This document shows positions 26,147 through 45,897 of a stretch of 64,000 nt of DNA, one piece after another. The translations under genes were made by a program, and so were the position numbers. The stretch's first letter is position 1. Each line of letters begins with the position of its first letter. Below the pieces are notes generated by a model that worked only from the letters and a program-made list of their open reading frames with translations, searched no databases and was not told the origin of the DNA. Source of the stretch: an uncultured Gammaproteobacteria bacterium (GTDB taxonomy: Bacteria; Pseudomonadota; Gammaproteobacteria; SG8-11); contig CAZZJI010000004.1 of NCBI GenBank assembly GCA_964654485.1, positions 1,104 to 65,103 of the forward strand. The letters are read 5' to 3'.

Positions 26147-26485
26147 CTAAAATATATTTCTTATGTAGGTGATAACATCCATAATTTGTTCATCTTTAAG
26201 AATGCCGTTATATCCTGGCATAATCCCTTTTCCGTTTTTTATGATCACCAGTAATTGTTGATCAGTTGCCATGAGGCCTTCTCTTTTTTTGAAATTTGGC
26301 GCATTTAACATAGGAGTACTACCACTGCTTTCATGACAATCAAAGCAATATTTATAATATATCGGCCTACCATCAAATGGGTTACCCGCAACAGCCTTTC
26401 CCGAGACCAACAGCCCGGTAGTCAACAATGTGGCTGTGAAAAAAACCAGTATGGTAAAATTTTGATTCAACGCTTTTAACTTCAT
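26147..26485 (-). CDS. Small monoheme class I c-type cytochrome, secreted
   Basis: 112 aa with a signal peptide and a single CFDCHESSG heme motif. It is the last gene downstream of ccmI. Confidence 0.8.
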   Translation of the reverse strand: MKLKALNQNFTILVFFTATLLTTGLLVSGKAVAGNPFDGRPIYYKYCFDCHESSGSTPMLNAPNFKKREGLMATDQQLLVIIKNGKGIMPGYNGILKDEQIMDVITYIRNIF

Positions 26486-26564
26486 TTTAATCAGCCTTGA
26501 TTGTCGTTATATTTATTCTTTTATTAAGTATTTTTGTTAAGAGTTAAAATTATTATTTGAATAC

Positions 26565-27875
26565 CTATGGTCTAACTGAGTTTATCAACAATGGTATTTC
26601 GGTAGTGCCAACAGAAATGACCGGGCTTTTGCCCTCAAAGTCTCCACTTTGTGGTGTCGCATTGCCGCTCTTAGAAATCCTGGCACCGACTATAACATCT
26701 TTAAATTTCGACAGTTTAAATGCTGGATTCATTGATGACGAATCATCCAATACAAAAGTAATCGGCAAATCTTTTACTTGTTTCTTCAATATAGCTAGCG
26801 GCATACGCGGACCAGTCGCTGCTCTGGCGAAGATGAAAACTGTATCGGTCGGCGCGGCGCTGCTCGCAAAAACAGGTGCAATTGTCACTACACCACTGAC
26901 GCTGCTGGCTCCCGCCGCCGCGCCCGGTGCCGTAGGAAGTGCCGTAGAAAGTACAGCAGACGATTTTTCAGAGGGCGTCGCGGCAGAACCACCAGATGCA
27001 GTTGGTGATGGAACGGACATACCGCGCAACACCATCAATTCTTTTACTTCCCCAATATTACGCTGAATCTGTTGAGCGCTATCTGACTCGGGCGGAAAAA
27101 GAGATACTAATTTTTCCCAGTAGGCAAGCGCCGCTGGAAAATCTTCTGCTTGATATGCGCCTGTTCCCGCTAACCAGAGTGATTTTTGGTGAAACGGTTG
27201 TAATGTGAGTGCTTTCTTGACCAGCTCATAGGGTCGGCCTGCCATCTGCCGATTATTCGCAACTGCAAGTGTGTCAGCAAAATCAGCCAGTAAATCCGGG
27301 TTGTTTTCACCAGATAATTTTATCGCTTCACCATATGCTTTACTGGCTTCAAGATGACGTTTTTGAAAATAATAAGTACGCCCTAACATAATCCATCCTT
27401 CTACATCGCTTGGATTTGATGCCAAACGCTGCTGCAGCCCTAGGATCACATCGTCGATAGACCCTTCGTGACCTTCAGAACTTGCTACTACTGAGGGGTC
27501 ATTAGGTGAAATCGCGGCCAGCCCCCCGCCTATCTCGTTGTAAATAAGTACTGCTGCCAATGGAATACCTAAACCAATTACGATGGCTGTGGTACTGCCT
27601 TTGGAAACTTGTTGTGAATGCGGGTCATCCGGTTCTTTTACATCTTCCAATAAACTTCGATCAAGTTCTTTGCGAGCACTATCGAACTGTTCATCGGTTA
27701 GTACACCATTTTTTAAATCTTCATCCAACTCGGCTATTTTATCTTTATGAATAGCAATATTAATCTTGTCGCGCTTTACATCTTCCTGCCTTTTACCCGC
27801 GTACAATAAGGGGGGCAATAAAAATAATAATCCTGCAACTAACAATAATACAGCGACAATCCAAAATACTGTCAT
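26565..27875 (-). CDS. ccmI: Cytochrome c-type biogenesis protein CcmI (TM anchor, TPR repeats, long Ala/Ser-rich C-terminal extension)
   Basis: 436 aa. It is the last gene of the ccm operon. The N-terminal TM helix, KRDKINIAIHKDKIAELDEDL and the TPR-like region are typical of CcmI/CycH. Confidence 0.75.
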   Translation of the reverse strand: MTVFWIVAVLLLVAGLLFLLPPLLYAGKRQEDVKRDKINIAIHKDKIAELDEDLKNGVLTDEQFDSARKELDRSLLEDVKEPDDPHSQQVSKGSTTAIVIGLGIPLAAVLIYNEIGGGLAAISPNDPSVVASSEGHEGSIDDVILGLQQRLASNPSDVEGWIMLGRTYYFQKRHLEASKAYGEAIKLSGENNPDLLADFADTLAVANNRQMAGRPYELVKKALTLQPFHQKSLWLAGTGAYQAEDFPAALAYWEKLVSLFPPESDSAQQIQRNIGEVKELMVLRGMSVPSPTASGGSAATPSEKSSAVLSTALPTAPGAAAGASSVSGVVTIAPVFASSAAPTDTVFIFARAATGPRMPLAILKKQVKDLPITFVLDDSSSMNPAFKLSKFKDVIVGARISKSGNATPQSGDFEGKSPVISVGTTEIPLLINSVRP

Positions 27876-28414
27876 GACTTATCCTTTTCTCCAGCACCTT
27901 TTTCTTCAGCGCGCAATAATTCGTTCACTTGCTTGCTTTCGTCATCTGATAGCGTAGGTGAGCTAACAACTTGTTTACTGCGCCGTTTTAAATTTATAAA
28001 AAGTAGTGTGCCACCAATCACAAGAAACAGTGCAGGTCCAAACCAAAGTAACATGGTGGTTGCTTTAATAGGCGGTCGATAACGCACAAAATCACCATAT
28101 CGTTCCACCATATAATCAATAACTTGAACTTCTGTTTTACCAGACGAGAGCATCTCCCGTACCTGATTCTTCAGGTCAACGGCTAACGCAGCGTCGGAAT
28201 CGGCTATCGTCTGATTTTGACAAACCAAACAACGTAATTCAGCGGAAACGGTGTTTACCTTTTCTTCCAATACCGGATCCTTAGCCATTGGCGTGGCTTC
28301 CTTGGCTAATACCGGATTGCTTACCATTATTTCAAGCAAAATAGTCCCAATCAAGACCCCAAGCAAAACTTGTGCGGTTAGGAAAAATTCAACATTTTTG
28401 ATTAGATGTTTCAT
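27872..28414 (-). CDS. ccmH: Cytochrome c-type biogenesis protein CcmH
   Basis: 180 aa. It has the LRCLVCQNQ redox motif and a C-terminal TM helix. The start and stop overlap those of ccmG and ccmI. Confidence 0.85.
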   Translation of the reverse strand: MKHLIKNVEFFLTAQVLLGVLIGTILLEIMVSNPVLAKEATPMAKDPVLEEKVNTVSAELRCLVCQNQTIADSDAALAVDLKNQVREMLSSGKTEVQVIDYMVERYGDFVRYRPPIKATTMLLWFGPALFLVIGGTLLFINLKRRSKQVVSSPTLSDDESKQVNELLRAEEKGAGEKDKS

Positions 28415-28947
28415 CCTTTTTCCAACTCCTTAAGCAATGGCATCACATCTTCTACTAATGATTGTCTAGTCACAGGTCCAATCACTTTGTGCCGAATAAT
28501 GCCTTGTTTATCTATCACAAACGTTTCAGGGACGCCGTATACACCATAATCAATGCCGACTCTACCATCATAATCCACAACACTTAATTTATAAGGATTA
28601 CCATGTTGCTGCAACCATTGCTTCGCGTCTTTGGGCACATCCTTGTAATTCAAGCCATACAAAGGCACATCTCCGCGACGCGCAAATTCCATCAACAATG
28701 GGTGTTCAGCAAGGCACGCTACACACCATGAAGCCCAAACATTTAATAACCATACCTTGCCACGCATTTCCTCTGGTGAAAATGACAACTGAAAATCATG
28801 TAGCTGAGAAAGCTTAAACGCCGGCGCCGCTTTATTAATAAACGGAGACGGCACTTCTCTGGGCTTAAGACTTAAACCCTTCCACAAAAATCCAACCATC
28901 ACAGCAAAAATAATGAGTGGCAGTAAAAACTTAATATAACGTGCCAT
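28411..28947 (-). CDS. ccmG: Thiol:disulfide interchange protein CcmG/DsbE
   Basis: 178 aa. It has a thioredoxin fold with the WCVAC active site and an N-terminal TM anchor. Confidence 0.85.
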   Translation of the reverse strand: MARYIKFLLPLIIFAVMVGFLWKGLSLKPREVPSPFINKAAPAFKLSQLHDFQLSFSPEEMRGKVWLLNVWASWCVACLAEHPLLMEFARRGDVPLYGLNYKDVPKDAKQWLQQHGNPYKLSVVDYDGRVGIDYGVYGVPETFVIDKQGIIRHKVIGPVTRQSLVEDVMPLLKELEKG

Positions 28948-29031
28948 TAAAATACTCCGTTCATCTACCTACCCGTATTAATGCAAACAATGAACCAGGC
29001 AAATAGGGTAAAAATATCGCAAATTAGTGTA

Positions 29032-31056
29032 TTATTCAGTCGCGCCCAAACCCTTTGGATCAGCTTTAGGGCCAGCCAGCACTTCACTTTCTTTCTTCAC
29101 TTCCGGTTGTCCAACCTTACGCCGTGCCAAACGATAGCGACGATCTGAAATTGCAAGAAAACCACCTAAAGTCATAAAAACGGCTCCACCCCAAATCCAG
29201 CCTACAAAGGGCTTATAATATACACGCACACTCCAGGCACCGCCCGCAAGTGGTTCACCCAGGGAGACATAAAGATCCCTGAATAAACCGCTATCGATAC
29301 CCGCTTCGGTCATCGGCATGCGTTGTACGGTATACAATCGTTTTTCAGGCTTGAGTATAGTTTCGAACTCACCGTTTTTTGTTACATAAATTAGTCCCTG
29401 GCTGGCGGTATAATTAGGGCCTTGTATATCCTGCGCGCCATCAAAACGAAAAACATACGGACCGATACCAATGGTGTCACCTATTTCCATTCTAACATCC
29501 TGTTCGGATTCATAATTAACAACACAGGTGATACCAATAATCGTCACCGCAACGCCAAAGTGTGCGAGATTGTGGCCATAATAGCTTCTTGGCAACTTTT
29601 TCAATTTGTGCAACACACTGCCCTTATAGGCGGACACCGATACGCGTTGGTAAATATTGGCAATCACACTAAAAATAATCCAATAAGCCATTAGCAAGCC
29701 CAGGCTGACCAAAGCGGACCATTCACCCGCCAAAAATGGAACAACCAAAGCACTTATCACTGAAGCAATAAAAGGAATGCGCATTTGCTTAAGCAAATCT
29801 GCTGTGTTGGTCTGCTTCCAGCGAGCAACGGGACCTATTCCCATCATAGCAACCAGCACGACGACCAAAGGCACAAATACCGCATTAAAATACGGAGGAC
29901 CCACCGAAATTTTCCCCATACCCAGAGCATCGAGCAATAATGGATAGGTTGTCCCTAATAAAACCGACCCGCAGGCAACCACCAACACAACGTTAGCAAT
30001 AAGCAACATGGTTTCCCTGGAAACTAACTTGAACTCACCGCCTAACCCAACTTTAGGTGCGCGCCAGGCAAACAAAGCGAGTGAAGTGCCAATCGTCACT
30101 AACAAAAAGATAAGAATAAATAAACCACGTTCAGGATCAGTTGCAAACGCGTGCACTGACGTCAACACACCCGACCTCACCAAAAACGTACCTAACAAAC
30201 TAAGTGAAAACGTAAAAATAGCTAACAACACCGTCCAGTTTTTAAAGGTACCGCGTTTTTCTGTTACCGCCAGTGAGTGAATTAACGCAGTCCCCATTAT
30301 CCATGGCATAAATGACGCATTTTCTACCGGATCCCAGAACCACCAACCACCCCAACCTAATTCGTAATAAGCCCACCAGCTTCCTAATGCGATGCCGAGG
30401 GTCAAAAATGCCCAGGCAATGGTTGTCCAGGGACGCGACCAACGAGCCCACGCAGCATCAAAACGTCCACTTAATAACGCCGCGATCGCAAATGCAAACG
30501 CAACTGAAAAACCAACATACCCCATATACAACATCGGCGGATGAATTATTAATCCGAAATCCTGGAGCAAGGGGTTTAAATCTCGCCCGTCTACTGCAGC
30601 CGGTAATAATCTGTCAAAAGGATTGGAAGTAAAAATCATAAAGGACAAAAAGCCTACTGAAATCAGGCTCATTACACCCAGCACTCTGGCGACCATATCC
30701 AACGGTAGATTTTTGCTGAAAATGGATACCGCGTACGCCCAGCCCGCTAACATCAGCATCCACAATAACAATGAGCCTTCATGACCACCCCAGATAGCTG
30801 CGATTTTATACTGTATCGGCATGGCAGAATTTGAATTGGTCGCGACATAAGTCACAGAAAAATCATCATTTAAAAACGCATAAGCCAGGCAGGCGAATGC
30901 CACCGCAACAAACATAAATTGAGCCTGGGCACCAGGGCGAGACATCGCCATCCAGGAATAATCACCTCTGGCAGCACCCGCAATGGATAACACGCCTTGT
31001 ACCAACGCAATGCATAGCGCTATAATTAATGCAAAATGACCGATCTCTGGTATCAT
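29032..31056 (-). CDS. ccmF: Cytochrome c heme lyase subunit CcmF
   Basis: 674 aa polytopic membrane protein. It has the WGGWWFWDPVEN tryptophan-rich motif. Confidence 0.9.
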   Translation of the reverse strand: MIPEIGHFALIIALCIALVQGVLSIAGAARGDYSWMAMSRPGAQAQFMFVAVAFACLAYAFLNDDFSVTYVATNSNSAMPIQYKIAAIWGGHEGSLLLWMLMLAGWAYAVSIFSKNLPLDMVARVLGVMSLISVGFLSFMIFTSNPFDRLLPAAVDGRDLNPLLQDFGLIIHPPMLYMGYVGFSVAFAFAIAALLSGRFDAAWARWSRPWTTIAWAFLTLGIALGSWWAYYELGWGGWWFWDPVENASFMPWIMGTALIHSLAVTEKRGTFKNWTVLLAIFTFSLSLLGTFLVRSGVLTSVHAFATDPERGLFILIFLLVTIGTSLALFAWRAPKVGLGGEFKLVSRETMLLIANVVLVVACGSVLLGTTYPLLLDALGMGKISVGPPYFNAVFVPLVVVLVAMMGIGPVARWKQTNTADLLKQMRIPFIASVISALVVPFLAGEWSALVSLGLLMAYWIIFSVIANIYQRVSVSAYKGSVLHKLKKLPRSYYGHNLAHFGVAVTIIGITCVVNYESEQDVRMEIGDTIGIGPYVFRFDGAQDIQGPNYTASQGLIYVTKNGEFETILKPEKRLYTVQRMPMTEAGIDSGLFRDLYVSLGEPLAGGAWSVRVYYKPFVGWIWGGAVFMTLGGFLAISDRRYRLARRKVGQPEVKKESEVLAGPKADPKGLGATE

Positions 31057-31157
31057 AATCCCTCTCTTGAATCCCTATTCTTTCTGCAGTTGCTAACTTA
31101 TGTTTTTGATTTGAATATGTTTCCTAACGACCTTGCTAACATAAGGTTTGGCTAAAA

Positions 31158-31619
31158 CTATTCTGCCAGGTTTGTAGTATTCATTTTTGCTTTTGCTTTT
31201 TCCGCTTTGTCCAGCGCATCCTGAACCTCGGGTGGCATATAAGTCTCATCGTGCTTGGCGAGCACTTCTTTGGCATAAAAGCTGCCACTATCGTCAAGTT
31301 TGCCTTGTGCAACAACCCCCTGACCTTCCTGAAATAAATCCGGTAAAATACCTTTATAAGTAACGTCAATGGTCTGTAATTTGTCAGTCACTTTAAAATG
31401 CACGGTCAAACCATCATCTTCTCGTTGCAAACTACCTTCTTCCACCATGCCGCCTACTCGAATGGTTTTACCACGCGGCGCTTCATTAGACTTAACTTCT
31501 GTAGGACTGTAAAAAAATGAAACATTGCTATTCAATGCATTCAACACCAATCCAGCAGCAACAGCCAATCCGGATACACCAATCACTACAAACATTAAAC
31601 GCTTATTTCTTGCCTTCAT
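31158..31619 (-). CDS. ccmE: Heme chaperone CcmE
   Basis: 153 aa. It has an N-terminal TM anchor, an OB fold, and a C-terminal LAKHDETYMPPEV carrying the heme-binding His. Confidence 0.9.
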   Translation of the reverse strand: MKARNKRLMFVVIGVSGLAVAAGLVLNALNSNVSFFYSPTEVKSNEAPRGKTIRVGGMVEEGSLQREDDGLTVHFKVTDKLQTIDVTYKGILPDLFQEGQGVVAQGKLDDSGSFYAKEVLAKHDETYMPPEVQDALDKAEKAKAKMNTTNLAE

Positions 31620-31644
31620 ATTCGATAATCCTGTTTCTCTAATA

Positions 31645-31833
31645 TTACTCTGTAGTCTGGTTGCGTTTGTTAGCTCGAATCAAGCGAAACAAACGTTGCA
31701 CTAATGTGCGTCGGCGTCGACTCAGCAAAATCAATTCACCAACCATAAAGGCGGCCGTAACGCCATATGACCACCAAACGAAACTGGCGTAGCCACCCAT
31801 GTGTATAAACTCGGACCAACTGGACCAGTTCAT
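31645..31833 (-). CDS. ccmD: Heme exporter protein CcmD
   Basis: 62 aa single-TM protein located between ccmC and ccmE. Confidence 0.75.
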   Translation of the reverse strand: MNWSSWSEFIHMGGYASFVWWSYGVTAAFMVGELILLSRRRRTLVQRLFRLIRANKRNQTTE

Positions 31834-32627
31834 GCACTGCCCCCTTCTCTCTGGACAGATTTCTGTTGCTCTGTCTTGTCTTGTACAGGACCATCCAGTA
31901 AATCAGCGACCCAAGATGCATTTTTTTCGCGCTCAAGAATTTCACAACGAACGCGCATCAGCGCCACCACGATTGCATACGCCCAGAACGCAAACACCAT
32001 AATCATCATCGTCCATAACATCGTCGGGTCGATTTTCGATTCTTGACCCGGCGCAACCGAGAAAGGTTGATGCAAAGTATTCCACCATTTCACCGAAAAA
32101 TAGATGATAGGCACGTTAACCGCACCCACAATGGCTAACAATGCGCTGGCTTTTGATGCACGTCGTGGATCATCAATCGCCGAGCGTAATGCAATAAACC
32201 CCATATAAAGAAAAAGCATCACCAGGTAGGTAGTTAGTCTTGCATCCCATACCCAATAAGTACCCCATGTAGGTTGGCCCCACAACGCACCCGTCCATAA
32301 TCCAACAAAAGTAAACATCGCACCAGTGGGTGCCAGTGCACCTGCCATCATCTCTGCGAGCTTTACATTCCAGATAAGTCCAACTGCGGCCCAGCCCGCC
32401 ATCACCATATAAATCAACATCGACATCCACACCGCAGGCACGTGGATATAGATAATGCGATAACTGTCACCCATTCGGTAATCGGGAGGCGTGACCAATA
32501 ATCCTAAATACAAACCAATCGCCGTGAGAACAACAGCAATACCCATACACCAAGGTATAATTTTACCGGCAGCCGGATAAAATGTTTTTGGTGATGAGAA
32601 ATACAACCAGAATCGTGATGTGGCCAT
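31830..32627 (-). CDS. ccmC: Heme exporter protein CcmC
   Basis: 265 aa. It has the WGTYWVWDARL WWD motif. Confidence 0.9.
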   Translation of the reverse strand: MATSRFWLYFSSPKTFYPAAGKIIPWCMGIAVVLTAIGLYLGLLVTPPDYRMGDSYRIIYIHVPAVWMSMLIYMVMAGWAAVGLIWNVKLAEMMAGALAPTGAMFTFVGLWTGALWGQPTWGTYWVWDARLTTYLVMLFLYMGFIALRSAIDDPRRASKASALLAIVGAVNVPIIYFSVKWWNTLHQPFSVAPGQESKIDPTMLWTMMIMVFAFWAYAIVVALMRVRCEILEREKNASWVADLLDGPVQDKTEQQKSVQREGGSA

Positions 32628-32659
32628 AAACTAATACTTCTCTATTATTCCGCGCTGAT

Positions 32660-33367
32660 CTATTCAACGCTAATTCTTAAAGCAACACTGGTTGCTAACG
32701 GTGCAAACACAATAGATGCCACTAAAAACGCACCCAGTAACGATAAATGCCCATCGATACTGATGCCCGCGCTATACGCCTCCACCGCACCGGCACCAAA
32801 TATCAGCACTGGTATAAACAACGGCAACACTAACAGCGACAACAATATACCACCTCCGCGCACACCCAATGTAAGTGCCGCGCCGATGGACCCAATTAAA
32901 CTTAAAACAGGTGTACCTAACAACAAGGTAATCACCAATATCTGTATCGTATCTGCACTTAACCCCAACTGCATACCTAACAGGGGTGAGAGCAATGCGA
33001 GTGGCACACCGGTCAACAGCCAATGTGCAAATAATTTTGCTAGTACCAAAACAGACAATGGGTATGGCGCGATCACCATCTGTTCCAATGTGCCATCTTC
33101 AAAATCACTGGCGAACAACGTGCTTAATGACAACATTGAGGCCAATAGCGCGGCAACCCAGATAACACCTGGCGCCATCGTGCGCAACAGTTCCATTTCC
33201 GGACCTACACCCAATGGAAACAGTGTGACGGCAATTATAAAGAAAAACAGCGTCGTAAACACATCCGTACGCCGTCGCATCGCCAGAGTCAGGTCACGTA
33301 CCACCATAAAGCGGAAGGCAGCAATTAACCCCATTTCACCTGTGGATTCTGCCACTGCGTCGCTCAC
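32660..33367 (-). CDS. ccmB: Heme exporter permease CcmB
   Basis: 235 aa polytopic membrane protein, downstream of ccmA with overlapping start and stop. Confidence 0.85.
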   Translation of the reverse strand: MSDAVAESTGEMGLIAAFRFMVVRDLTLAMRRRTDVFTTLFFFIIAVTLFPLGVGPEMELLRTMAPGVIWVAALLASMLSLSTLFASDFEDGTLEQMVIAPYPLSVLVLAKLFAHWLLTGVPLALLSPLLGMQLGLSADTIQILVITLLLGTPVLSLIGSIGAALTLGVRGGGILLSLLVLPLFIPVLIFGAGAVEAYSAGISIDGHLSLLGAFLVASIVFAPLATSVALRISVE

Positions 33368-33984
33368 GAATCCAGATTAATTTGTCGAGCTTGTTTGCCC
33401 GTTGTCAGAGCAACATCCTGGTGTGTAGTTAATATCACCATCCCACCATTTTCGAGATGTGTTCTTATTAATCCTTGCAATAATTCCACAGCCGCAACAT
33501 CCAAGGCGCTAAAAGGCTCGTCCAGAATCCATAATTTTGTCTCGCTGACCAGTAACCTGGCCAAAGCAACACGGCGCTTTTGTCCTTGCGATAAAAATCG
33601 GGTGGGTAAATCCTCTCGACCCATTAGCCCCATTTTTTCCAGGGACTCAAGTGCTCGCGCTTCAGATAATTCGATGCCCGCGAGCTTACTGGAAATCCTC
33701 AAATTTTCAATGCCGGTTAGCTCATCCTTGATCGCATTTAGATGGCCAAAATAGCTAAGTTCCTGATAATACTCCTCACGCAACTCACTTATATTTTCGT
33801 TTTCCCAAAAAACTTCACCCTCAGTGGGCATAAATAAACCACATAAAATCCTCAATAAACTGGTTTTTCCACTGCCATTGGATCCGCGCAAATAAACAAG
33901 TTCCCCGGCGCTAACAGAAAAGCCTAAATTTCTAAATAAAACATGGTCTCCTCGAGTACATTCGAGATTCCGGGCCTCTAACAT
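33364..33984 (-). CDS. ccmA: Heme exporter ATP-binding protein CcmA
   Basis: 206 aa. The Walker A motif is GSNGSGKTSLL, the ABC signature is LSQGQKRRVALARLL, and the Walker B motif is ILDEP. Confidence 0.9.
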   Translation of the reverse strand: MLEARNLECTRGDHVLFRNLGFSVSAGELVYLRGSNGSGKTSLLRILCGLFMPTEGEVFWENENISELREEYYQELSYFGHLNAIKDELTGIENLRISSKLAGIELSEARALESLEKMGLMGREDLPTRFLSQGQKRRVALARLLVSETKLWILDEPFSALDVAAVELLQGLIRTHLENGGMVILTTHQDVALTTGKQARQINLDS

Positions 33985-34265
33985 GTTGTGAAAAATCCTT
34001 AATTCTTATCTCACAAATACAACTTATCATTATCACCAACACCCAAATATCTAATTTTATTGAGGTTAATGGGCGTATCGCGGCCAAGTTTATCACATCC
34101 GATGTGCAGGCCATAGGACATCAAAATAGCAAAATAATGAAGCCCGTTACCAATAACCTAATAAAATAACGGTTAAGCGCCGCGCAACTCTTGCTCACGA
34201 CGAACTATCCACTAAATACTACTCCCTATTTGCTTAATGGCACATGAACGGGGTTCGCAATATTT

Positions 34266-34790
34266 TTATTGTTTGTATAACTGGTTAATTTTTACGACTA
34301 ATTCAGGACTATCCCATTCTCGCCATCCCCAGATAATTTCCTGAATGATGCCGTCTGAACCCACCAGATAAGTTGCGGGATAAACGCGAACACCAAGCAC
34401 ATCATTTGCAATAATTGAGTCGATATCCAAAAAATTTGGGTAGCTGACCTTTTGCTCAATTAAAAACTCACGCACCAGATGTTCATCGTAATCCACCGAT
34501 ATACCAATAACATCAAATTTTTCATCATCCAGTTTGGATTTTAGGCGCTGCAAGCTGGGCAATTCATGCCGACATGGGCCACACCAAGTCGCCCAAATAT
34601 TGATAACCCGTGCTTTTCCCGAAGATGAATCAAGTGAAACATCGTTACCTTCAAGATCTTTCACAACAATATCCGGAAAAGATTGGCCCGAAGCAACAAC
34701 GTTTAACGGTGCCAAGGTTTTATCTTCACAAGCGGGCAATACCGATACCACCAGGATAATGATAAAAAAATAGTTCAAAGAAGATTGCAT
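34266..34790 (-). CDS. TlpA/ResA-like thiol-disulfide oxidoreductase lipoprotein (System II-associated thioredoxin). The start is probably an internal Met; the ORF-track start overlaps the upstream gene.
   Basis: It has a thioredoxin fold with WATWCGPCRHELP and the lipobox-like VLPACEDK. Confidence 0.75.
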   Translation of the reverse strand: MQSSLNYFFIIILVVSVLPACEDKTLAPLNVVASGQSFPDIVVKDLEGNDVSLDSSSGKARVINIWATWCGPCRHELPSLQRLKSKLDDEKFDVIGISVDYDEHLVREFLIEQKVSYPNFLDIDSIIANDVLGVRVYPATYLVGSDGIIQEIIWGWREWDSPELVVKINQLYKQ

Positions 34791-34804
34791 CAAGCACGTC
34801 TGAA

Positions 34805-35443
34805 TTAATTCGATTCGCTCTTTAATGTCCCATCTGGCTGCTCTTTTACACCCTCTATACGCCCTAACCTGGCTTCCCATTCCCATAATGCCGAACGTGC
34901 TTTTGGTAAAAACGGATCATCAGGAGTTGATAAATGAATATAAGATCGCATCGCACCCAATGCGGCTTCATAATCTTTCAACCCTTCCAGTGACAAGGCC
35001 AGACCCCAGTACGCATTAGTTTGATCTACCTTGAGTTCAGTGGCTTTATTAAAAGCATTACCTGCACTTTCATATTGTTCCAGACCTAACAACGCAAACC
35101 CCATATTGACATAAGCTTCCGGTAACTTTGGGGCTAACGCAATCACCTGGTCTAATGCGGTAACGGCATATTCATATTGCTTCGCATGCAGTAGCGCAAT
35201 CGCTTGATCAAAGCGAACTTGTAATTCATGCAATCGTCTATCGCCCGCTTGATTTGCAGGCGACGCATTCTTATTTAACAAAGCAGGTTGTGTAGCAGGA
35301 ACCAAATCAGAATTATTGATTAAAAATGAAACCAAACCGATAATGATAAGCACCACCGCAACAGACAGCGTGGACACAATATTTTCAGAATTGTTTGCTA
35401 AATCAATGCGTTCACTCCCCGTCTCAATTGACTCGCTGTTCAT
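34805..35443 (-). CDS. TPR-repeat protein with an N-terminal TM anchor. The probable start is the Met whose ATG overlaps the ccsA stop (ATGA).
   Basis: TPR-like helices are present (YEYAVTALDQVIALAPKLPEAYVNMGFALLGLEQYESAGNAFNKATEL...AYWGLALSLEGLKDYEAAL). Confidence 0.65.
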   Translation of the reverse strand: MNSESIETGSERIDLANNSENIVSTLSVAVVLIIIGLVSFLINNSDLVPATQPALLNKNASPANQAGDRRLHELQVRFDQAIALLHAKQYEYAVTALDQVIALAPKLPEAYVNMGFALLGLEQYESAGNAFNKATELKVDQTNAYWGLALSLEGLKDYEAALGAMRSYIHLSTPDDPFLPKARSALWEWEARLGRIEGVKEQPDGTLKSESN

Positions 35444-36330
35444 ACCATTCCCTTGTGCGCAGAAGCGCTCAAATACGGTACGCCAAAATAGGTTGTAAAC
35501 GCCAAAATAAAAATGCCGATGATCATCGCACCACTCAGCCAGGCAGGAATTCGGTAAGTCAATCGCAAATGCAAGCCCAGCGCTAGCGCAAGCCAGGTAA
35601 GAAATGCCGATGTCTCCAACGGATCCCAGGACCAATAACGACCCCAGGCATCCTGCGCCCAAACCGCACCCGCGATCAACATCAAACTATCAAATACCAG
35701 CGCCAACATCATAAAACGCCAAGCAATCTTATCCAGAATTTCGTTTGCCGGCATACGTTCGAAATAAACCACAGTGCGTTTAAACTGTCGCAATATCATT
35801 ACACCGGAAAGCCCGACACCGAGTAACAGCAACGCTAGATACACCTTGCCCAGCAACACATGCGCCCATTTCCATTGATTGTAATATGTCGCTGGAAAAT
35901 GGCTCGCTTTTGGTTCAAGCAACAGCACCCAAGTTCCCAGTATCCATAAAATTGGCAGCGCAATGACTGCGCTGGCGCGCAGCCCCGGCAAACGCCAATA
36001 AGCAAGGGTAAAAATCACTCCCAAACTTAATAATTGACTCATGAGTAATTCAAATAAACTAATCCACGGGCCATGGCCAATACGCACCCACCGCATTGCG
36101 ATTGCAATCGTCAAAAATATTAATGCGCTAACTAAAAGAGCAAGTATCAACCTCTCATGTTGATTACCGCTCGTATTACTATTACCTGCTTCATTGATAC
36201 CCCCGATATTATTCATACCAATTTGGTGACGAGGCACCACACCCCAAATAGCAACAAACGTCGCCAACGCATACGCGGCCAACCCAGACCACAACCAGGG
36301 CAATTCTGCAACTATATCAGTGGAATTCAA
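35440..36330 (-). CDS. ccsA: System II cytochrome c biogenesis protein CcsA/ResC-like
   Basis: 296 aa polytopic membrane protein. It has the tryptophan-rich WAQDAWGRYWSWDPLET WWD domain and conserved His residues. Confidence 0.8.
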   Translation of the reverse strand: MNSTDIVAELPWLWSGLAAYALATFVAIWGVVPRHQIGMNNIGGINEAGNSNTSGNQHERLILALLVSALIFLTIAIAMRWVRIGHGPWISLFELLMSQLLSLGVIFTLAYWRLPGLRASAVIALPILWILGTWVLLLEPKASHFPATYYNQWKWAHVLLGKVYLALLLLGVGLSGVMILRQFKRTVVYFERMPANEILDKIAWRFMMLALVFDSLMLIAGAVWAQDAWGRYWSWDPLETSAFLTWLALALGLHLRLTYRIPAWLSGAMIIGIFILAFTTYFGVPYLSASAHKGMV

Positions 36331-37361
36331 ACAACATCTCCTTGCATCTTAGCCGCTGTAGATTTTTCTTTGGATTCTTCTTTGGAATGTTTAACACCGT
36401 CAGGCCATGGCCTGGACGCCATTTTTTCCCAGTAATGCCAACTAAGCCCAAATACACTAATTAAAGAAACAATAAACAACAATTGGATAGTCGGATTATA
36501 AAAAACTTTATAGCCCATCCAGGTGAGCAACTTGTCATATCGCAACTGACCACCGACGATCGGAATTGTATCACCTGGTTGCAACTCAATTCGCTGCTTA
36601 TTTTGTGAGACAACCAAAACACCCGATGAGTTCCTGCCATCCAGACGCCAAGCTTCATCCGCCGTCATACCGGTTTGTAATTGCAGCCAAAACTTTATTT
36701 CCTGATTATTTGGCGTTGTCCAGGTATTACCTTGTTTGTAATCAAATAACGGGTAAGAAGGCATATTAACCGTCCCCGTAACGGGTGACCCTTGTTCGGG
36801 AATCCAGGTTAGCAGCACGGAAAACCCCTTGTTAAATGTAGTGTAAAACCGAAACCCCTCGATGATCAGCGGCCGATCATCTCCAACAACTTTTTTTACC
36901 AGATTCCCCTGTTCATCAGGTATAAACACCTGACTAAAGGTCAACCCCCTGAGCATCCCTGCTCCATAATCCACAGTAAAGGGGCCTTGAATAAAATGCA
37001 CCTTCTCTAATGAGCCAGAGAACAGGGGACCCTTGAATTCTTCGGTTAGCTGACTCGGATCAAACGGTTGGGATTCCACTATTTCTATATGTGCATCCAG
37101 ATAAATCAAACGTCCTATTGCGGCAAGTACTACTATACCCAATAAGGCCAGATGAAAAGTCAGCAGGCCGGGCTGGGAATTAATGCGTGAATTAGAAAAA
37201 ATGGCTGCCAGCAGATTAATGGCTAACAAAGCCAGCGGAATTACAACCACCCAAACCACCGCACCCGGCTGATTGTCATAGGACAACGCAGCTCCAATGC
37301 CTAACAAAACAAAGCCTACCAAAGTAACTTTTAATGAGGCTATGGCCCTTATTATCTTCAT
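36327..37361 (-). CDS. ccsB: System II cytochrome c biogenesis protein ResB/CcsB-like (short form)
   Basis: 344 aa. It has an N-terminal TM helix, a periplasmic domain and a C-terminal TM helix. It is translationally coupled to ccsA by a 4-nt overlap. Confidence 0.65.
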   Translation of the reverse strand: MKIIRAIASLKVTLVGFVLLGIGAALSYDNQPGAVVWVVVIPLALLAINLLAAIFSNSRINSQPGLLTFHLALLGIVVLAAIGRLIYLDAHIEIVESQPFDPSQLTEEFKGPLFSGSLEKVHFIQGPFTVDYGAGMLRGLTFSQVFIPDEQGNLVKKVVGDDRPLIIEGFRFYTTFNKGFSVLLTWIPEQGSPVTGTVNMPSYPLFDYKQGNTWTTPNNQEIKFWLQLQTGMTADEAWRLDGRNSSGVLVVSQNKQRIELQPGDTIPIVGGQLRYDKLLTWMGYKVFYNPTIQLLFIVSLISVFGLSWHYWEKMASRPWPDGVKHSKEESKEKSTAAKMQGDVV

Positions 37362-37708: not shown

Positions 37709-38983
37709 TTGCTATTAAATATGAACAAAAATATTTCGCCACATACCTATGTCCTGTCTACGTTATTTGTTGTTGCGGCAACATTGCTTTTTTTTGAATA
37801 TTATGGTTTCAAAGAACAGTATTTTTATATTCCTGTTTTCTCACTCGCAATAATTTATGCTGCCCTCAATTTTATACGTCAACGAAGAGGACTGAGTGCA
37901 TTCTCTACGGATAAAAAAATCAATTTAGCAACGCTAGTTAAAAAATCAATCGCTCGTTATATTGTGTGGCTGACAATCATCTATCTTGCCTACACATTTT
38001 TCAGGCTAGCACCATTTTATGGTTTACCCCCTTACTCTGCGAGCACAGTCAGAGCTAACACAGTATTTTTTGAATATTTTTTAAATATTTACCTCATTGC
38101 TGGATTGCCCTATTTTATTTTAACAAACAAATTCAAAGCATCACGCGTAGAAGACTATTACGATCCCGCAATACGTATCATACACATGTTAAAGCAGGTT
38201 TTTTTACGCACGTTACGGGGTGATAATGTAAACTCAATATTTAGAGTATTTAGAAAAAAATACAATAGAAAAGTGTTGCTAAGCTTTTTGATGCGCACCT
38301 ACTTCGTCCCCATCATGGTCGTTCAGGTTTATAGTTACACGGTATACTCAGTGAATTTTCTGAATAACCCAGTTAACAACTACCAACTATTGTCCATATT
38401 GTTCGGAATTACCGGGATACTGTGGCTTGCCGATACGATAAATGCCAGTCTTAGTTATTGCATAGAATCGAGATGGATGGAAAACCGCACCCGCTCCATC
38501 GATCTGACGCTGGGCGGCTGGTTTGTTTGTTTGATCTGTTACACCCCGCTCAATGAGATCCCTTCTTATTTTTTCTTTTTTGCGCCGACAGTGGTTACAA
38601 ACAATGAAAGCCAGCTAATTATCGAAAATATTAATTTCTTATATACCATAAAAATAATTGAAATACTATTACTGGCCACTCACATTTACATAGACATTTC
38701 CCTTGGACCCTCTGTTGCCAATATAACGCTTAAAAAACTGCAAACAAAGGGTTTTTATGGGTTAATACGTCACCCGGGCACTACATTCAAATTGCTTTTC
38801 TGGCTTATACAATCTGTTTTTTATAAACGCTTCTGGAGCCTAAAAATTATTTTTGGTTATTTTATGTGGGCAACAATATACGTGTTGCGTGCACTCACCG
38901 AAGAACGCCACCTTAGCCAACATGAAGAATATATCGAATACAAAAAGAAAGTAAAATACCGGTTTTTCCCAAAATTATTCTAG
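37709..38983 (+). CDS. Polytopic membrane protein with a C-terminal isoprenylcysteine-carboxyl/phospholipid methyltransferase (ICMT/PEMT-like) domain
   Basis: 424 aa. The C-terminal LIRHPGTTFKLL...TEERHLSQHEEYIEYKKKV matches the RHP...EE..L family signature. It is strongly AT-rich compared with its neighbours. Confidence 0.55.
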   Translation: MLLNMNKNISPHTYVLSTLFVVAATLLFFEYYGFKEQYFYIPVFSLAIIYAALNFIRQRRGLSAFSTDKKINLATLVKKSIARYIVWLTIIYLAYTFFRLAPFYGLPPYSASTVRANTVFFEYFLNIYLIAGLPYFILTNKFKASRVEDYYDPAIRIIHMLKQVFLRTLRGDNVNSIFRVFRKKYNRKVLLSFLMRTYFVPIMVVQVYSYTVYSVNFLNNPVNNYQLLSILFGITGILWLADTINASLSYCIESRWMENRTRSIDLTLGGWFVCLICYTPLNEIPSYFFFFAPTVVTNNESQLIIENINFLYTIKIIEILLLATHIYIDISLGPSVANITLKKLQTKGFYGLIRHPGTTFKLLFWLIQSVFYKRFWSLKIIFGYFMWATIYVLRALTEERHLSQHEEYIEYKKKVKYRFFPKLF

Positions 38984-39000
38984 CGATCTGATGTATTAAG

Positions 39001-39762
39001 TTAAAACGCTTTACGCTTAATGATATACACCATCATTTCCTTTTTATAAACTAGCGACGTTTGCATCTTCATTTCCATTATCTGCAAGCCGTTTTTTTCT
39101 ACCATTTCCTGTATTCTGGGAAAATTAAATAAAAACCCTGATGCATAAATTATTCTGCCATTATGTTTCAAATACTTAGATATTTGCCTAAAAAACCGTT
39201 CATGAACTTCCCACAAAGGATCATCGCTATTGTCCAGGTGTTCAGGATAGTTAATATTATTAATGATGACATCAAATTTTTCGCCGGACTTAACAGGTTC
39301 AAACAAATCACCTAAACGCACATCAATTTTATTCTCCAAACCGAATCGCTTTATATTAATATTTGCGCTTTTAATAGCATCCTCACCAATATCCGTCGCC
39401 ACGATCCAACTTGCTTTATTAGCAGCAAAAATCGCCTGAATACCCGAACCTGTACCAATATCCAGCACCGCTTCACCTTCATTTATCACACTGTTTTCAA
39501 GCAAGAACATACTCTGAATAGAAGGCCGTACAGCCTTACCATAGACATGAAATGTCTTTTGATTCGCGGACACAATAAACGGCTGATCAACTTTGCCTGG
39601 CCGTTGCGAATAATACAGCGTCATTTCGCCCGGATAATCAATGCGGACAAAATTCTTGCCAGGGTCTTTTTGATGTGTGCAAGCTAATAAAAAACCCAGT
39701 GCCATAGCTAAAAATAAATACTTAATTCCCTGTAGCCGTAACACAAGCGATAATCCATTCAT
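39001..39762 (-). CDS. Secreted or lipoprotein class I SAM-dependent methyltransferase (small-domain MTase)
   Basis: 253 aa. It has a signal and lipobox (LLACTHQ), motif I VLDIGTGSGIQAI, and a motif IV-like VIINNINYPE. Confidence 0.6.
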   Translation of the reverse strand: MNGLSLVLRLQGIKYLFLAMALGFLLACTHQKDPGKNFVRIDYPGEMTLYYSQRPGKVDQPFIVSANQKTFHVYGKAVRPSIQSMFLLENSVINEGEAVLDIGTGSGIQAIFAANKASWIVATDIGEDAIKSANINIKRFGLENKIDVRLGDLFEPVKSGEKFDVIINNINYPEHLDNSDDPLWEVHERFFRQISKYLKHNGRIIYASGFLFNFPRIQEMVEKNGLQIMEMKMQTSLVYKKEMMVYIIKRKAF

Positions 39763-39819
39763 ATGTAATCAATCCTTTCCAGTCAATTCTGTTATTATTT
39801 AAACTGCGACAATAGATTA

Positions 39820-40818
39820 TTGTACCTCCATTTATACTGGTTGTCGCAAAACACGGTTTTCGTAGATTGGGATGAGGCGCGAAATCCAAGCTACAAATTA
39901 GAGAATAAGACTATTACCGAACCCATCTCTGAATATAGCTCTCACATCCTCGGCGGCATAGCTGCACTTGGGTCCGCATTGCTATGGGCAATCTCGGCTA
40001 TTCTATTTAAAAAAATCGGCAATAACATGCAACCCATTGCCATGAATTTTACCAAGGGAATCGTTGCGATACTCTGTCTTACGGTTCTTATAATACCCAG
40101 TGATCTTTTGTCGCTAGATAAAACCAGCCTGATGATGCTTGCAATAAGTGGCATTATTGGTATAAGCCTGGGTGATACATTTTATTTCGCAACCCTGGTG
40201 CGTATGGGTCCACGAATTACTCTGCTAATCGGCACATTGATACCCGTTTGCGTAGCCATTATTTCAGTTTTATTTTTACATGAAAAAATAACCTCTATCG
40301 CATGGATTGGCATCACGCTGACCATTGCAGGTGTCGCCACTGTCCTGTGGGAACAATCACCGCACACCGAGGCGCCTAAACACATTGGTCGCGGTGTAAT
40401 ATTCGCGCTGATTTTCATCTTGGCAAATGCGCTTGGCATCATTCTTACAAAATTGGGCGTTGCAAATATTCCCACCCTGGAAGCAACGTTAATACGCGAA
40501 TCAGCGGCAGTGATGGGACTCGCTGTCTGGGGAGCAATGTCGCATTCGTTACTGAAATGGGTCAAGCCACTTAAAAATTTGCAGCTATTAGGCTGGCTTA
40601 CATTCGCCGCAATTATTGGCACATTTTTGGGCACCTGGTTATCCGTTATCGCTCTAAAATACACCTACACTTCTGTCGCCGCAACACTTAACTCCACCAG
40701 CCCTATTTTTATTCTGCCTTTAATCGCTTTTTTCCTCAAAGAACATGTTTCTCTAAAAGCGACCGCAGGTGCATTGATGGCAGTTGGCGGTATAGCCCTA
40801 TATTTTTTCACGCTTTAA
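39820..40818 (+). CDS. DMT/EamA-family transporter. The N-terminal roughly 40 aa of the ORF are probably not translated.
   Basis: It has ten predicted TM helices and two EamA-like halves. Confidence 0.7.
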   Translation: MYLHLYWLSQNTVFVDWDEARNPSYKLENKTITEPISEYSSHILGGIAALGSALLWAISAILFKKIGNNMQPIAMNFTKGIVAILCLTVLIIPSDLLSLDKTSLMMLAISGIIGISLGDTFYFATLVRMGPRITLLIGTLIPVCVAIISVLFLHEKITSIAWIGITLTIAGVATVLWEQSPHTEAPKHIGRGVIFALIFILANALGIILTKLGVANIPTLEATLIRESAAVMGLAVWGAMSHSLLKWVKPLKNLQLLGWLTFAAIIGTFLGTWLSVIALKYTYTSVAATLNSTSPIFILPLIAFFLKEHVSLKATAGALMAVGGIALYFFTL

Positions 40819-40992
40819 CCTTTAAGCTGCCACCAAAGAATATAAGGCACATGATTTAGATCATGTTTATTTTTTTATCAACAGTTTTTTATGAGCATTT
40901 TTTTATTAGCATAGTATAATAGTCCACGCTCTGCACAAGGCTTAGTAATAAAGTCGCAGTCAGTTTTTGTGATGGTTTGAGTGTAATTAAAG

Positions 40993-41038
40993 ATGGGGGG
41001 TAATAAAAATGGGTGTAATAAAGATGGGTGTAATAAAA
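40993..41038 (+). repeat. 15-bp tandem repeat, 3 copies (atggg(g)gtaataaa(a/g)), overlapping the solute-binding-protein start. Each unit carries an ATG.
   Basis: Read directly. Unit 1 has an extra G, which puts it in a different frame (the 78-aa ORF 40993-41229). Units 2 and 3 give the N-terminus MGVIKMGVIK. Confidence 0.8.
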
Positions 41039-42094
41039 AGGGGAGTGGTAAAATTAAATGCAGTAAAACTGTGCTCGCATTTGCTTCATTCTTTTTTATT
41101 CTTGTTGTTCGGGATTTTCATCCCGTTAAACAGCGCATTTGCAAAAGAGCTGTTCGAAGTCTCGGTGGGTATATCACCTGTTATGAGTTCGTCGGCAATG
41201 TTTATTGCCAAAGAACGCGGTTATTTTGAAGAACAAGGAATCAAAGTAATTATCAACCCGTTTAAAGCCTCTGGCGCTAAAATGGTTCCTTTTCTGGCTA
41301 CCGGGCAACTAATGGTAGGCGGCGGAAATATCAGTGCTGGCATGTATAACGCGATTGCCAATGATATTCCAATAAAAATTGTGTCGGACAAAGGCACAGT
41401 AACGCCAGGTCATGGATATCTTGCGCTTATTGTTCGAGCCGATCACATCAAAAGCAGACGATACAGCGGGTTTGCTGATTTGAAAGGTATGACTATGGCC
41501 GTCACCGCAAAGGGTGTATCTCAGGAAATTGTCACAGAACGATTTTTGAAGAAAGCAGGGCTAACCCTCAAAGATATAAAATTGGTAACGCTCGCCTATT
41601 CTGATATCAACATAGCATTGGCAAACAAATCCATTGATGCCTCTATCCAGATTGAACCCTTTGTCGCAGCTGCTGTTGAAAACAATATCGCTATTCGGGT
41701 TGCCGGAAACGACCTGGTTTATCCGAACCAACAAAGCGCAGCGATTATGTATTCACCTGTGTTTATTGAAAAACACCCTGAACAAGCTAAAGCCTTCATG
41801 GTAGCTTATGTCAAGGGTCTACGCGATTACAACGATGCATTTGAAAAAAACATAGGAAAAGATACCGTCATCTCTATGCTGGCAAAAAGCACTCGAATAA
41901 AAAACCGCAAAATATATGAAAAAGTGGTACCTGTTGGCCTGGATCCGAATGGAAAAGTGAATATAGAAAGCCTTAGAAATGATGCACGCTGGTACTTTGA
42001 ACATGGTTATGTTAAAAAATTACCGGATATTGATTCCATTGTCGATCTAAGTTTTGCAGAATATGCGGTAAAGAAACTGGGCAGCTATAAATAA
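41009..42094 (+). CDS. ABC transporter periplasmic substrate-binding protein, NMT1/SsuA/TauA-like (nitrate/sulfonate/bicarbonate family)
   Basis: 361 aa with a signal peptide. The family assignment rests on the overall SsuA-like pattern and its position ahead of a matching ATPase and permease. Confidence 0.7.
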   Translation: MGVIKMGVIKRGVVKLNAVKLCSHLLHSFLFLLFGIFIPLNSAFAKELFEVSVGISPVMSSSAMFIAKERGYFEEQGIKVIINPFKASGAKMVPFLATGQLMVGGGNISAGMYNAIANDIPIKIVSDKGTVTPGHGYLALIVRADHIKSRRYSGFADLKGMTMAVTAKGVSQEIVTERFLKKAGLTLKDIKLVTLAYSDINIALANKSIDASIQIEPFVAAAVENNIAIRVAGNDLVYPNQQSAAIMYSPVFIEKHPEQAKAFMVAYVKGLRDYNDAFEKNIGKDTVISMLAKSTRIKNRKIYEKVVPVGLDPNGKVNIESLRNDARWYFEHGYVKKLPDIDSIVDLSFAEYAVKKLGSYK

Positions 42095-42170
42095 AACACG
42101 CGAAATCAAAAACAAGCCCCCCAATTTGCTAATATTTTGTACGTGAATCTCACAGGAAATTCAATATCAC

Positions 42171-42999
42171 AACTAACGCTATTATTGTTGCAGAAAATTT
42201 AAGCAAAGAATTCTGCAACAACGACAATAAAATAACCGCGTTCCAGGGTTTAAACTTTCAGGTTAATTCTGGTGAATTTCTTTGTTTGCTTGGTCCCAGT
42301 GGTTGCGGTAAATCCACCATTTTGAACACCATCTGCGGACTGGAATCTCCCACGACCGGAGATTTAATCATTGACGATGGTGGTAGCAATACAAAAACAA
42401 AAATAAGTATGGTGTTCCAGGAACACGGGCTATTCCCCTGGATGTCTTTAAAGGACAACATTGCATTTCCGTTAAAAAATGACACCTCTTTCGGGGATAA
42501 CTCTTTCCGTAAAAAAAGTTTCCGTAAAAAAAGTATCGAGCAACTTAGCATACAATTTTTAGAAAAAGTCGGCTTATTGAAATTCGCTAACTTTTTTCCG
42601 CACCAGGTTTCAGGCGGCATGCGGCAACGTATCAGTATCGCAAGAAGCTTTGCTGTTAATCCTGATATTTTATTGATGGACGAACCGTTTGTTTTTCTGG
42701 ATTATCAAAACAGACTGCTATTGCAAGAGTTATTATTGACACTTTGGCAAGACTCGAACAAGACCGTTCTATTTGTTACCCACAATATCAATGAAGCGGT
42801 ATCCCTGTCGGACCGTATTCTAGTAATGACCGCCCACCCCGGTTCAATGAAAGCAAATATAAAAATCAAATTATCTCGCCCCAGAGATATGTTTGAAATC
42901 AGAAAATCGACTGCATTCAGCAATTATGTAAATGACATTACTGATCTGATCAAGCATGAAATAATCGCATCACAGCAACAAACACAAATTGATATTTAA
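42171..42999 (+). CDS. ABC transporter ATP-binding protein (NitT/TauT family). The start is uncertain: the ORF-track TTG at 42286 sits directly on the Walker A motif. The homologous N-terminal strand is encoded upstream with no canonical start codon.
   Basis: The Walker A motif LLGPSGCGKST is at the ORF start. Upstream, the in-frame NAIIVAENLSKEFCNNDNKITAFQGLNFQVNSGEF is ABC-like. The signature is LSGGMRQR and the Walker B motif is LLMDEP. There is an in-frame 15-bp tandem duplication (SFRKKSFRKK). Confidence 0.7.
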
Positions 43000-43009
43000 A
43001 TGAGCAACA

Positions 43010-43753: not shown

Positions 43754-43835
43754 TAGATGTAAGTCATCTACTTTAACCTGAGGTATAATGCAGGACGCCC
43801 AACAATCAAACAGAATATAACATTTAAAAAAACAA

Positions 43836-44951: not shown

Positions 44952-45006
44952 CATTGTTTCATAACACCAAATTACAAAAATCAAACCCCAAACACCAAGG
45001 GAAATT

Positions 45007-45891: not shown

Positions 45892-45897
45892 ATTCGT

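Follow-up and report, generated by a model that had tools for sequence, protein, structure and literature searches.

A probable synthase module of short ResB/CcsA type beside a complete System I, and its linkage to the uet cytochrome genes in uncultured Gammaproteobacteria

A 64,000-nt stretch of DNA of an uncultured gammaproteobacterium (the window; all coordinates count from its first letter) carries two cytochrome c maturation systems side by side. On its minus strand, 14 genes form an unbroken row, consisting of a four-gene ccs set of System II type, the nine ccm genes of System I and a gene for a monoheme cytochrome c. The four-gene set (37361–34266) codes, in this order, for a short ResB/CcsB protein, a CcsA/ResC-like protein, a membrane-anchored TPR protein and a ResA/TlpA-like thioredoxin lipoprotein. 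Judged from its sequence features, this module very probably represents an active holocytochrome c synthase, and the synteny of related loci makes it likely that it is dedicated to the cytochromes of the Uet (undecaheme electron transfer) cluster of the same window, beside a housekeeping System I.

The uetABCDEFGHIJ genes were named by Eddie et al. 2022 (bioRxiv 10.1101/2022.05.06.490989), and Uet proteins are regarded as candidate conduits for extracellular electron uptake in cathode- and iron-oxidising bacteria (bioRxiv 10.1101/2022.05.06.490989, PMC10734462, PMC13386937). Some Gallionella (PMC10734462) and Leptothrix group 2 (PMC13386937) were likewise reported to possess Uet clusters. The module, its coexistence with System I and the hypothesis that it matures the Uet cytochromes have already been published by Eddie et al. 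2022 (bioRxiv 10.1101/2022.05.06.490989). New in this study are the quantitative synteny, a thioredoxin-bearing class of loci that abuts ccm, the conservation of the catalytic residues and the finding that no unusual heme motif was detected. Neither the hosts considered in this study nor those of the Tenderiales preprint include a cultured isolate. With regard to nomenclature, the TIGR03144 name "ccsB" and the labels of Eddie et al. swap CcsA and CcsB relative to Pfam and to the ResB/ResC usage; in the following, "CcsA-like" always means the PF01578 protein. The genes on which the argument is based are the following:

36327..37361, minus strand: ccsB-short, ResB/CcsB-like protein of 344 aa with four transmembrane (TM) helices (PF05140, structure comparison)
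35440..36330, minus strand: ccsA-like, ResC/CcsA heme-handling subunit of 296 aa (PF01578, 66 bits)
34805..35443, minus strand: membrane-anchored TPR protein of 212 aa, proposed apocytochrome chaperone (generic TPR Pfam matches)
34266..34790, minus strand: ResA/TlpA-like thioredoxin lipoprotein of 174 aa with a WCGPC motif (AhpC-TSA, Redoxin and Thioredoxin domains)
51467..54265, minus strand: uetJ, undecaheme cytochrome of 932 aa, proposed main substrate (11 CXXCH motifs)
54557..63987, minus strand: uetI, H, G, F, E, D, C and B (Pfam matches; order and homology to uet clusters)

The four genes of the set are tightly packed, with a TTGA overlap at the ccsB/ccsA junction, an ATGA overlap between ccsA and the TPR gene and a spacer of 14 nt between the TPR gene and the thioredoxin gene. 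The overlapping stop and start codons point to an operon organisation. The ccm genes follow downstream. An earlier reading of this DNA (the sequence-only reading) had described a ResB/CcsA pair less than 300 bp from ccm, on the same strand and with its own thioredoxin and TPR protein. Both accessory genes are present on that strand, the distance between the thioredoxin gene and ccmA amounts to 281 bp, and all 13 gene placements of that reading were confirmed, with two corrected starts. The true start of the TPR gene is the ATG at 35443, which gives a protein of 212 aa with one N-terminal TM helix instead of the 285-aa open reading frame (ORF), and the thioredoxin gene starts at 34790, which gives 174 aa including a lipobox cysteine. 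Likewise, the product taken for CcsA proved to be of CcsA type in profile searches, that taken for ResB is probably of ResB type with a borderline PF05140 score, and the complete nine-gene System I was borne out. A scan of the gap between the thioredoxin gene and ccmA for promoters and terminators gave no clear signal, and Rfam and tRNA scans over the window gave no matches. A hairpin or palindrome with a 15-bp stem (37460–37492, minus strand: ACTATAACCTGAAT-TCG-GGATTTAGGTTATAGT) lies about 100 nt 5' of the ccsB start within the divergent intergenic region; it has no Rfam match and may represent an operator or RNA element.

The porin-cytochrome cluster uetB-J occupies positions 63987–51467. 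Its gene order equals the published order, and uetA would fall past the end of the window. Starting from 63987, uetB-I code for a PPIase, a 629-aa putative beta-barrel protein, two c7 cytochromes, a 522-aa protein, a third c7 cytochrome and two NHL proteins; all three c7 cytochromes (UetD, UetE and UetG) are triheme. Order and homology agree with the clusters of several related loci (L004, L005, L007, L015 and others), and UetJ of the window is 47–61% identical to the cytochromes encoded directly 5' of ccsB in relatives. In the window the orthologous ccs trio is not situated immediately 3' of uetJ, unlike in the published uet module, but about 14 kb away.

The linkage was quantified in 80 metagenome loci with an alignment to the short ResB and in loci obtained from protein look-ups. 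Onto all of these loci, 29 proteins of the window were mapped by tblastn; collapsing at 95% ResB identity left 71 non-self loci, and the upstream counts refer to the 41 loci with at least 3 kb of upstream sequence. A CcsA-like gene followed the short ResB gene in all relatives (55/55), and the TPR gene came next in 53/53. A UetJ-type homologue with 11 CXXCH motifs was located at most 100 bp 5' of the short ResB gene in 27 of the 41 loci and 100–600 bp upstream in three others. With 30 of 41 loci within 600 bp, the co-occurrence with the 11-heme cytochrome, which had been proposed as a check in the sequence-only reading, was positive at related loci. In a further six loci the distance was 0.6–10 kb (within 10 kb in 36/41), and in five no UetJ was visible.

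According to the gene calls of sampled loci, uetJ and ccsB overlap by 4 nt in L004, L005, L007, L009 and L094, and in three long NCBI contigs of metagenome-assembled genomes (MAGs) a gene for a cytochrome of about 900 aa has its stop codon overlapped by the ResB-like gene. In these three MAG contigs the cluster codes for a ~600-aa protein, two c7 cytochromes, a ~440-aa protein, another c7 cytochrome, two NHL proteins, the multiheme cytochrome and the ResB-like, CcsA-like and TPR proteins, and the c7 cytochromes are again triheme. The linkage also extends to remote members of the short ResB family (<50% identity). Three of four such members (P0160, P0140 and P0275) are encoded directly behind an 11-CXXCH cytochrome of 800–1000 aa with c7 and NHL genes upstream, which is a uet-like arrangement; the scores of the remote members so arranged are 330, 290 and 204 bits.

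Two architectures were distinguished among 47 informative loci. Class A (29/47) has no thioredoxin gene; its CcsA proteins are 52–57% identical to that of the window, uetJ is adjacent in 25/25, and the layout is the published Tenderia arrangement. Class B (18/47), to which the window belongs, carries the thioredoxin gene and has CcsA proteins 63–81% identical to that of the window. Where class B loci offered at least 5 kb of downstream sequence, ccmA was found within 3 kb in 8/15 and within 10 kb in 12/15. These counts indicate that the adjacency of ccs and ccm is not due to chance but is a conserved architecture of this lineage. It appears to be a contracted version of the layout in Tenderia, where both systems are separated by bat genes. 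In the lineage of the window the module has moved away from uetJ to a position directly 5' of ccmA, and this arrangement is recurring and not a one-off. The order in L080 is uetF-G-H-I-J, lactonase, ccsB, ccsA, TPR, trx, ccmA-I, and that in L009 is uetJ, ccsB, ccsA, TPR, trx, ccmA-I, cytochrome c. In class B uetJ is mostly located upstream of ccsB, and the intervening genes code for FGE-sulfatases, a 424-aa membrane protein, a lactonase-type propeller or a methyltransferase.

That the module is an active synthase is suggested by its conserved residues. The CcsA-like protein aligns to residues 666–897 of CcsBA from H. hepaticus (PDB 7s9y), and its residues H157, H254 and H292 are equivalent to P-His1 (H761), TM-His2 (H858) and P-His2 (H897), respectively; the sequence WGRYWSWD aligns to the WWD heme-binding motif. 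Conservation was computed on homologues recovered from 90 related loci. In the CcsA-like protein H86, H157 and H254 are 100% and H292 is 95% conserved, with the whole WWD block invariant (66 homologues), and H70 of the short ResB is 100% conserved. Taken together, the four heme-ligand histidines and the WWD motif are 95–100% conserved over 66–82 homologues, and the lipobox C21 and the C70xxC73 motif of the thioredoxin are invariant (16 homologues). Such conservation (95–100%) of the heme ligands, the WWD motif and the CxxC motif of the thioredoxin indicates purifying selection as an active synthase. With 103.6 bits, the CcsA-like protein stays under the cut-off of the TIGR03144 equivalog (187.6) and is, on sequence criteria, a divergent paralogue and not the canonical housekeeping protein.

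The short ResB is equally set apart. In its AlphaFold model (pLDDT 87), a beta-rich periplasmic domain of about 200 aa is preceded by three TM helices at the N-terminus and followed by one at the C-terminus, and CcsBA was its sole significant match in a Foldseek search against the PDB (probability 1.0, E 3e-5). A profile search in 1.84 billion representatives at 50% identity gave 445 matches at E ≤1e-3 and 223 at E ≤1e-30. The best 150 of the 445 matches are all 183–367 aa long, which indicates a discrete family distinct from canonical ResB. For the thioredoxin, ResA (88.6 bits) and TlpA (85 bits) were the best NCBIfam models, both under their cut-offs, and its identity to CcmG of the operon is 27%. 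Three CcsA-like proteins (P0296, P0306 and P0309; 69–70% identical to that of the window) bear the NCBI label 'Kaarinaea lacus' with a taxonomy of Nostocales cyanobacteria; they probably stem from contigs of gammaproteobacterial contaminants in the assembly of a non-axenic cyanobacterium.

Some results of these comparisons count against the proposed Uet-linked synthase. The short ResB exceeds the PF05140 cut-off only narrowly (26.4 bits against 24.6), has no match in NCBIfam and gave no match among PDB sequences, CcsBA included, neither with phmmer nor with a profile of 32 family sequences; the structural agreement is moderate (TMq 0.30). At about 340 aa it is shorter than canonical ResB, of which the Pfam model alone spans 486 positions, and its periplasmic domain is much shorter. 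No transmembrane reductant supplier of the CcdA/DsbD type was present among the annotated ORFs of the window. The TPR protein was also considered as a paralogue of NrfG or CcmI and rejected, as it matched none of NF007692, TIGR03142 and PF23914 and BLASTP against the CcmI of the window gave no detectable similarity (E 1.9). From the weak ResB matches and the short periplasmic domain it might be argued that the pair is a heme exporter or another heme-handling complex serving a different purpose, or an inactive relic. This is very unlikely, since the catalytic histidines and the WWD motif are 95–100% conserved, CcsBA is the best structural match, and a thiol-reducing thioredoxin and a TPR partner make sense only if an apocytochrome is processed.

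If the module is a synthase, the question arises what distinguishes its substrate. The sequence-only reading had proposed a dedicated heme-attachment system for cytochromes of the neighbourhood and had explained it by unusual heme sites, among them a Cys-flanked, Met-rich insert. The linkage to uetJ supports the first part, but the rationale was not supported. All 11 heme motifs of UetJ are canonical CXXCH, and the 22 heme cysteines are invariant among 42 homologues. Three additional cysteines (C810, C905 and C928) are conserved in this set. Between hemes 10 and 11 (residues ~775–812) a Gly/Met-rich loop is bracketed by two cysteines (MCMMGGGGMGGGGMGGGRMSGGGGGMMCM). In the UetJ proteins of class B the length of this loop ranges from CX2C to CX25C (also L029, L080, L053 and L061), class A has a single cysteine at this position, and none is present in remote homologues. 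Only the window and its nearest relatives possess the long Met-rich insert, and elsewhere in class B the loop is reduced to CX2-6C. By analogy, the Met-rich loop may bind Cu(I) or another metal.

A synthase for a non-canonical site in UetJ, either the lone Cys810 or the Cys-flanked Met/Gly-rich loop, would resemble the dedicated System II synthases NrfI for CXXCK and CcsA1 for CX15CH, which set a precedent for motif-dedicated lyases (PMC12285233). Cys810 is indeed 98% conserved in the 42 close homologues and followed by the invariant H818 and H821, and thioredoxin-bearing UetJ proteins possess the CX2-25C loop. This explanation is nevertheless extremely improbable. Cys810 and the loop are missing in the remote UetJ proteins of L093, L094 and L095, and ccsB and ccsA are still encoded directly downstream there; furthermore, the long insert is confined to one subclade, and no CH dipeptide follows either cysteine. 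A non-canonical heme site was thus rejected as the general reason for the lyase.

As no conserved non-canonical motif was found, any specificity must rest on recognition at the protein level. The TPR protein is the obvious candidate, because NrfG and CcmI use their TPR domains to bind NrfA substrates at the C-terminal region (PMC12285233) and the C-terminus of UetJ ends in a near-invariant E-x-C-x3-P tail. It is conceivable, if so far a tentative proposal, that the module is dedicated to a multiheme cytochrome with canonical CXXCH motifs in a System I host through protein recognition, for example by a TPR protein that reads this tail.

Several observations argue against a dedication to the Uet cytochromes and have to be set beside the synteny. 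System I should in principle be able to handle the canonical motifs of UetJ, and a chemical need for a dedicated lyase is not apparent. In class B uetJ was adjacent to the ccs set in only 1/12 loci, 0.1–5 kb away in 7/12 and not seen in 4/12; here the set abuts ccm instead of uetJ, which fits a general role equally well. In L027 and L089 uetI is directly followed by ccsB (gaps of ~100 and ~160 bp) with no uetJ in between; either UetJ is missing or relocated there, or further Uet cytochromes are also substrates of the synthase. In L096, the fourth remote member, the short ResB gene follows a gene for a membrane sulfatase-domain protein, with no cytochrome upstream. Finally, no experimental study of the Uet-linked synthase, whether of its activity or of its specificity, was found in the literature.

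A general or condition-specific function is compatible both with the canonical motifs and with the separation of the set from uetJ in class B. In this case the module would be a second maturation pathway that provides extra capacity or operates under other heme, iron or redox conditions, and the link with uetJ would reflect co-inheritance with a horizontally transferred electron-transfer module. System I functions at lower heme levels than System II, and both could complement each other. Maturation systems move together with modules for extracellular electron transfer according to evidence cited by Eddie et al. 2022 (bioRxiv 10.1101/2022.05.06.490989), which would agree with such a transfer. 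A general pathway, the strongest competing explanation, nevertheless seems rather unlikely. The translational coupling to uetJ was kept over more than 50% sequence divergence, which hitchhiking alone explains poorly. In addition, the divergence of the family from canonical ResB/CcsA, with the equivalog cut-off missed and 445 matches, suggests a specialisation, and an obligatory TPR partner (53/53) is typical of lyase systems that recognise their substrate.

For a dedicated synthase, the following course of events can be proposed. By homology, the short CcsB and CcsA would form a membrane complex, in which TM-His1 (CcsB H70) and TM-His2 (CcsA H254) would line a channel for the outward passage of reduced heme. 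P-His1 (H157) and P-His2 (H292) would then hold the heme between them in the WWD site on the periplasmic side, where the complex may form the thioether bonds to the CXXCH motifs. The lipoprotein thioredoxin would keep the cysteines of the apocytochrome reduced. The single-pass TPR protein may act, by analogy to NrfG and CcmI, as an apocytochrome chaperone that delivers UetJ and possibly also the triheme UetD, UetE and UetG. Gene identities, the conserved catalytic residues and the genomic linkage to uetJ are observations; the dedication to a substrate, this chaperone role and the division of labour with the Ccm system are inferred.

The System I of the window comprises the following genes:

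26565..33984, minus strand: ccmABCDEFGHI, complete System I (Pfam and NCBIfam matches, catalytic motifs intact)
33984–33364, minus strand: CcmA (ABC_tran)
33367–32660, minus strand: CcmB (Pfam, 252.9 bits)
32627–31830, minus strand: CcmC (Pfam; NCBIfam match)
31833–31645, minus strand: CcmD (Pfam)
31619–31158, minus strand: CcmE (Pfam)
31056–29032, minus strand: CcmF (CcmF_C, 440 bits; NCBIfam CcmF/NrfE match)
28947–28411, minus strand: CcmG/DsbE (Pfam; NCBIfam DsbE match)
28414–27872, minus strand: CcmH (Pfam)
27875–26565, minus strand: CcmI (Pfam; NCBIfam match)
26147..26485, minus strand: monoheme cytochrome c of 112 aa, 3' of ccmI (PF13442)

The nine ccm genes have Pfam scores between 46 and 440 bits. 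Intact catalytic motifs are present in CcmC and CcmF (WWD), CcmE (LAKHDETY), CcmH (LRCLVC) and CcmG (WCVAC), so that the ccm genes are not pseudogenes, a case which the sequence-only reading had considered. The monoheme cytochrome c is found at the equivalent position in L009, L053, L067 and L075. Further 3' of ccm lies a second cytochrome and sensor cluster (15238–26122), which codes for two Reg_prop propellers, a Kelch-repeat protein, two pentaheme cytochromes with doubled CXXCH motifs, an NHL protein and tri- and diheme class I cytochromes; it corresponds to the 'secondary c-type cytochrome cluster' of Ca. Tenderia electrophaga.

The region which separates uetJ from ccsB is the remaining part of the locus:

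37709..51310, mixed or unspecified strand: block of about 14 kb between uetJ and ccsB (Pfam matches; gene calls in L001)

This block holds genes for a 424-aa membrane protein, a methyltransferase, an EamA protein, an NMT1/ABC transporter, four FGE-sulfatase-domain proteins, a radical SAM protein resembling HemN and a propeller of lactonase type with 705 aa, and subsets of these genes occur at the equivalent position in other thioredoxin-bearing loci. The 424-aa protein is polytopic and shows a weak C-terminal match to isoprenylcysteine/phospholipid methyltransferases. Its gene is divergent from ccsB and paired with one for a PrmA-like SAM (S-adenosylmethionine) methyltransferase, and this pair (37709–39762) is kept 5' of ccsB in many class B loci (L011, L037, L038, L060, L061, L067 and L075). 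Four paralogous FGE-sulfatase-domain genes are located at 43836–47700; homologues lie directly 5' of ccsB in several class B loci (L009, L011, L017 and L018). The product of 43836–44951 has an N-terminal region with two CXXCH motifs, and such a fusion of a cytochrome c to an FGE-like domain is unusual. Directly 3' of uetJ, genes for the seven-bladed lactonase-type propeller (49193–51310) and the HemN-like radical SAM protein (47764–49173), which is of the oxygen-independent coproporphyrinogen oxidase or HemW type, were detected. The propeller gene recurs between uetJ and ccsB in class B loci, and the HemN gene was seen in none of the related loci.

If holo-UetJ cannot form without the synthase, attempts to rebuild Uet in a foreign host will be unsuccessful unless it is supplied, and the four-gene cassette would have to be co-expressed. 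If UetJ is recognised at the protein level, the module would be a natural, portable maturation cassette for functional Uet electron-uptake conduits; dedication would also make it a clean natural system for studying how a cytochrome c synthase chooses a substrate with a canonical heme motif. As a general back-up pathway, the module would be of taxonomic and annotation interest only.

The closest known counterpart is the uet module of Ca. Tenderia electrophaga (Tenderiales), which includes ccsAB, nrfG and batABD downstream of uetABCDEFGHIJ and precedes a type-I maturation pathway of ten genes and a second cytochrome and sensor cluster (bioRxiv 10.1101/2022.05.06.490989). According to the same authors, a System II besides System I is unusual among Gammaproteobacteria, and their model assigns the maturation of the Uet cytochromes to CcsAB/NlpI (bioRxiv 10.1101/2022.05.06.490989). 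The window shares with it the families of uetB-J, ResB-like, CcsA-like and TPR proteins in equal order, a full type-I ccm set nearby and sensor-propeller proteins with more cytochromes downstream; loci with the Tenderiales architecture have ResB proteins 50–58% identical to that of the window. It differs in the ~14 kb between uetJ and ccsB, in that no bat genes separate ccm from the TPR gene, and in the added ResA/TlpA-like thioredoxin gene with the set abutting ccmA, an arrangement which was not found described in Eddie et al. 2022.

NrfI and CcsA1 of Wolinella succinogenes are likewise System II-type synthases encoded beside one multiheme substrate and thought to be specific to it. They are, however, fused CcsBA proteins for non-canonical motifs in a host with System II only, whereas the window has split subunits with a short ResB, an additional System I and exclusively CXXCH motifs. 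NrfEFG of E. coli also represents an extra lyase beside the housekeeping Ccm system, and its TPR protein (NrfG) recognises the substrate by the C-terminal region of the latter. NrfE, NrfF and NrfG are paralogous to CcmF, CcmH and CcmI, while the synthase of the window is of System II type and its TPR protein matches neither the NrfG model nor CcmI. Finally, the four heme-ligand histidines, the WWD motif and a ResA-like thioredoxin are shared with the canonical System II (ResABC/CcdA of B. subtilis, CcsBA-DsbD-CcsX of Bordetella and CcsBA of H. hepaticus, 7s9y), from which the module of the window is distinguished by a ResB of ~340 aa, a CcsA under the TIGR03144 cut-off, the lack of a linked CcdA and an obligatory TPR partner.

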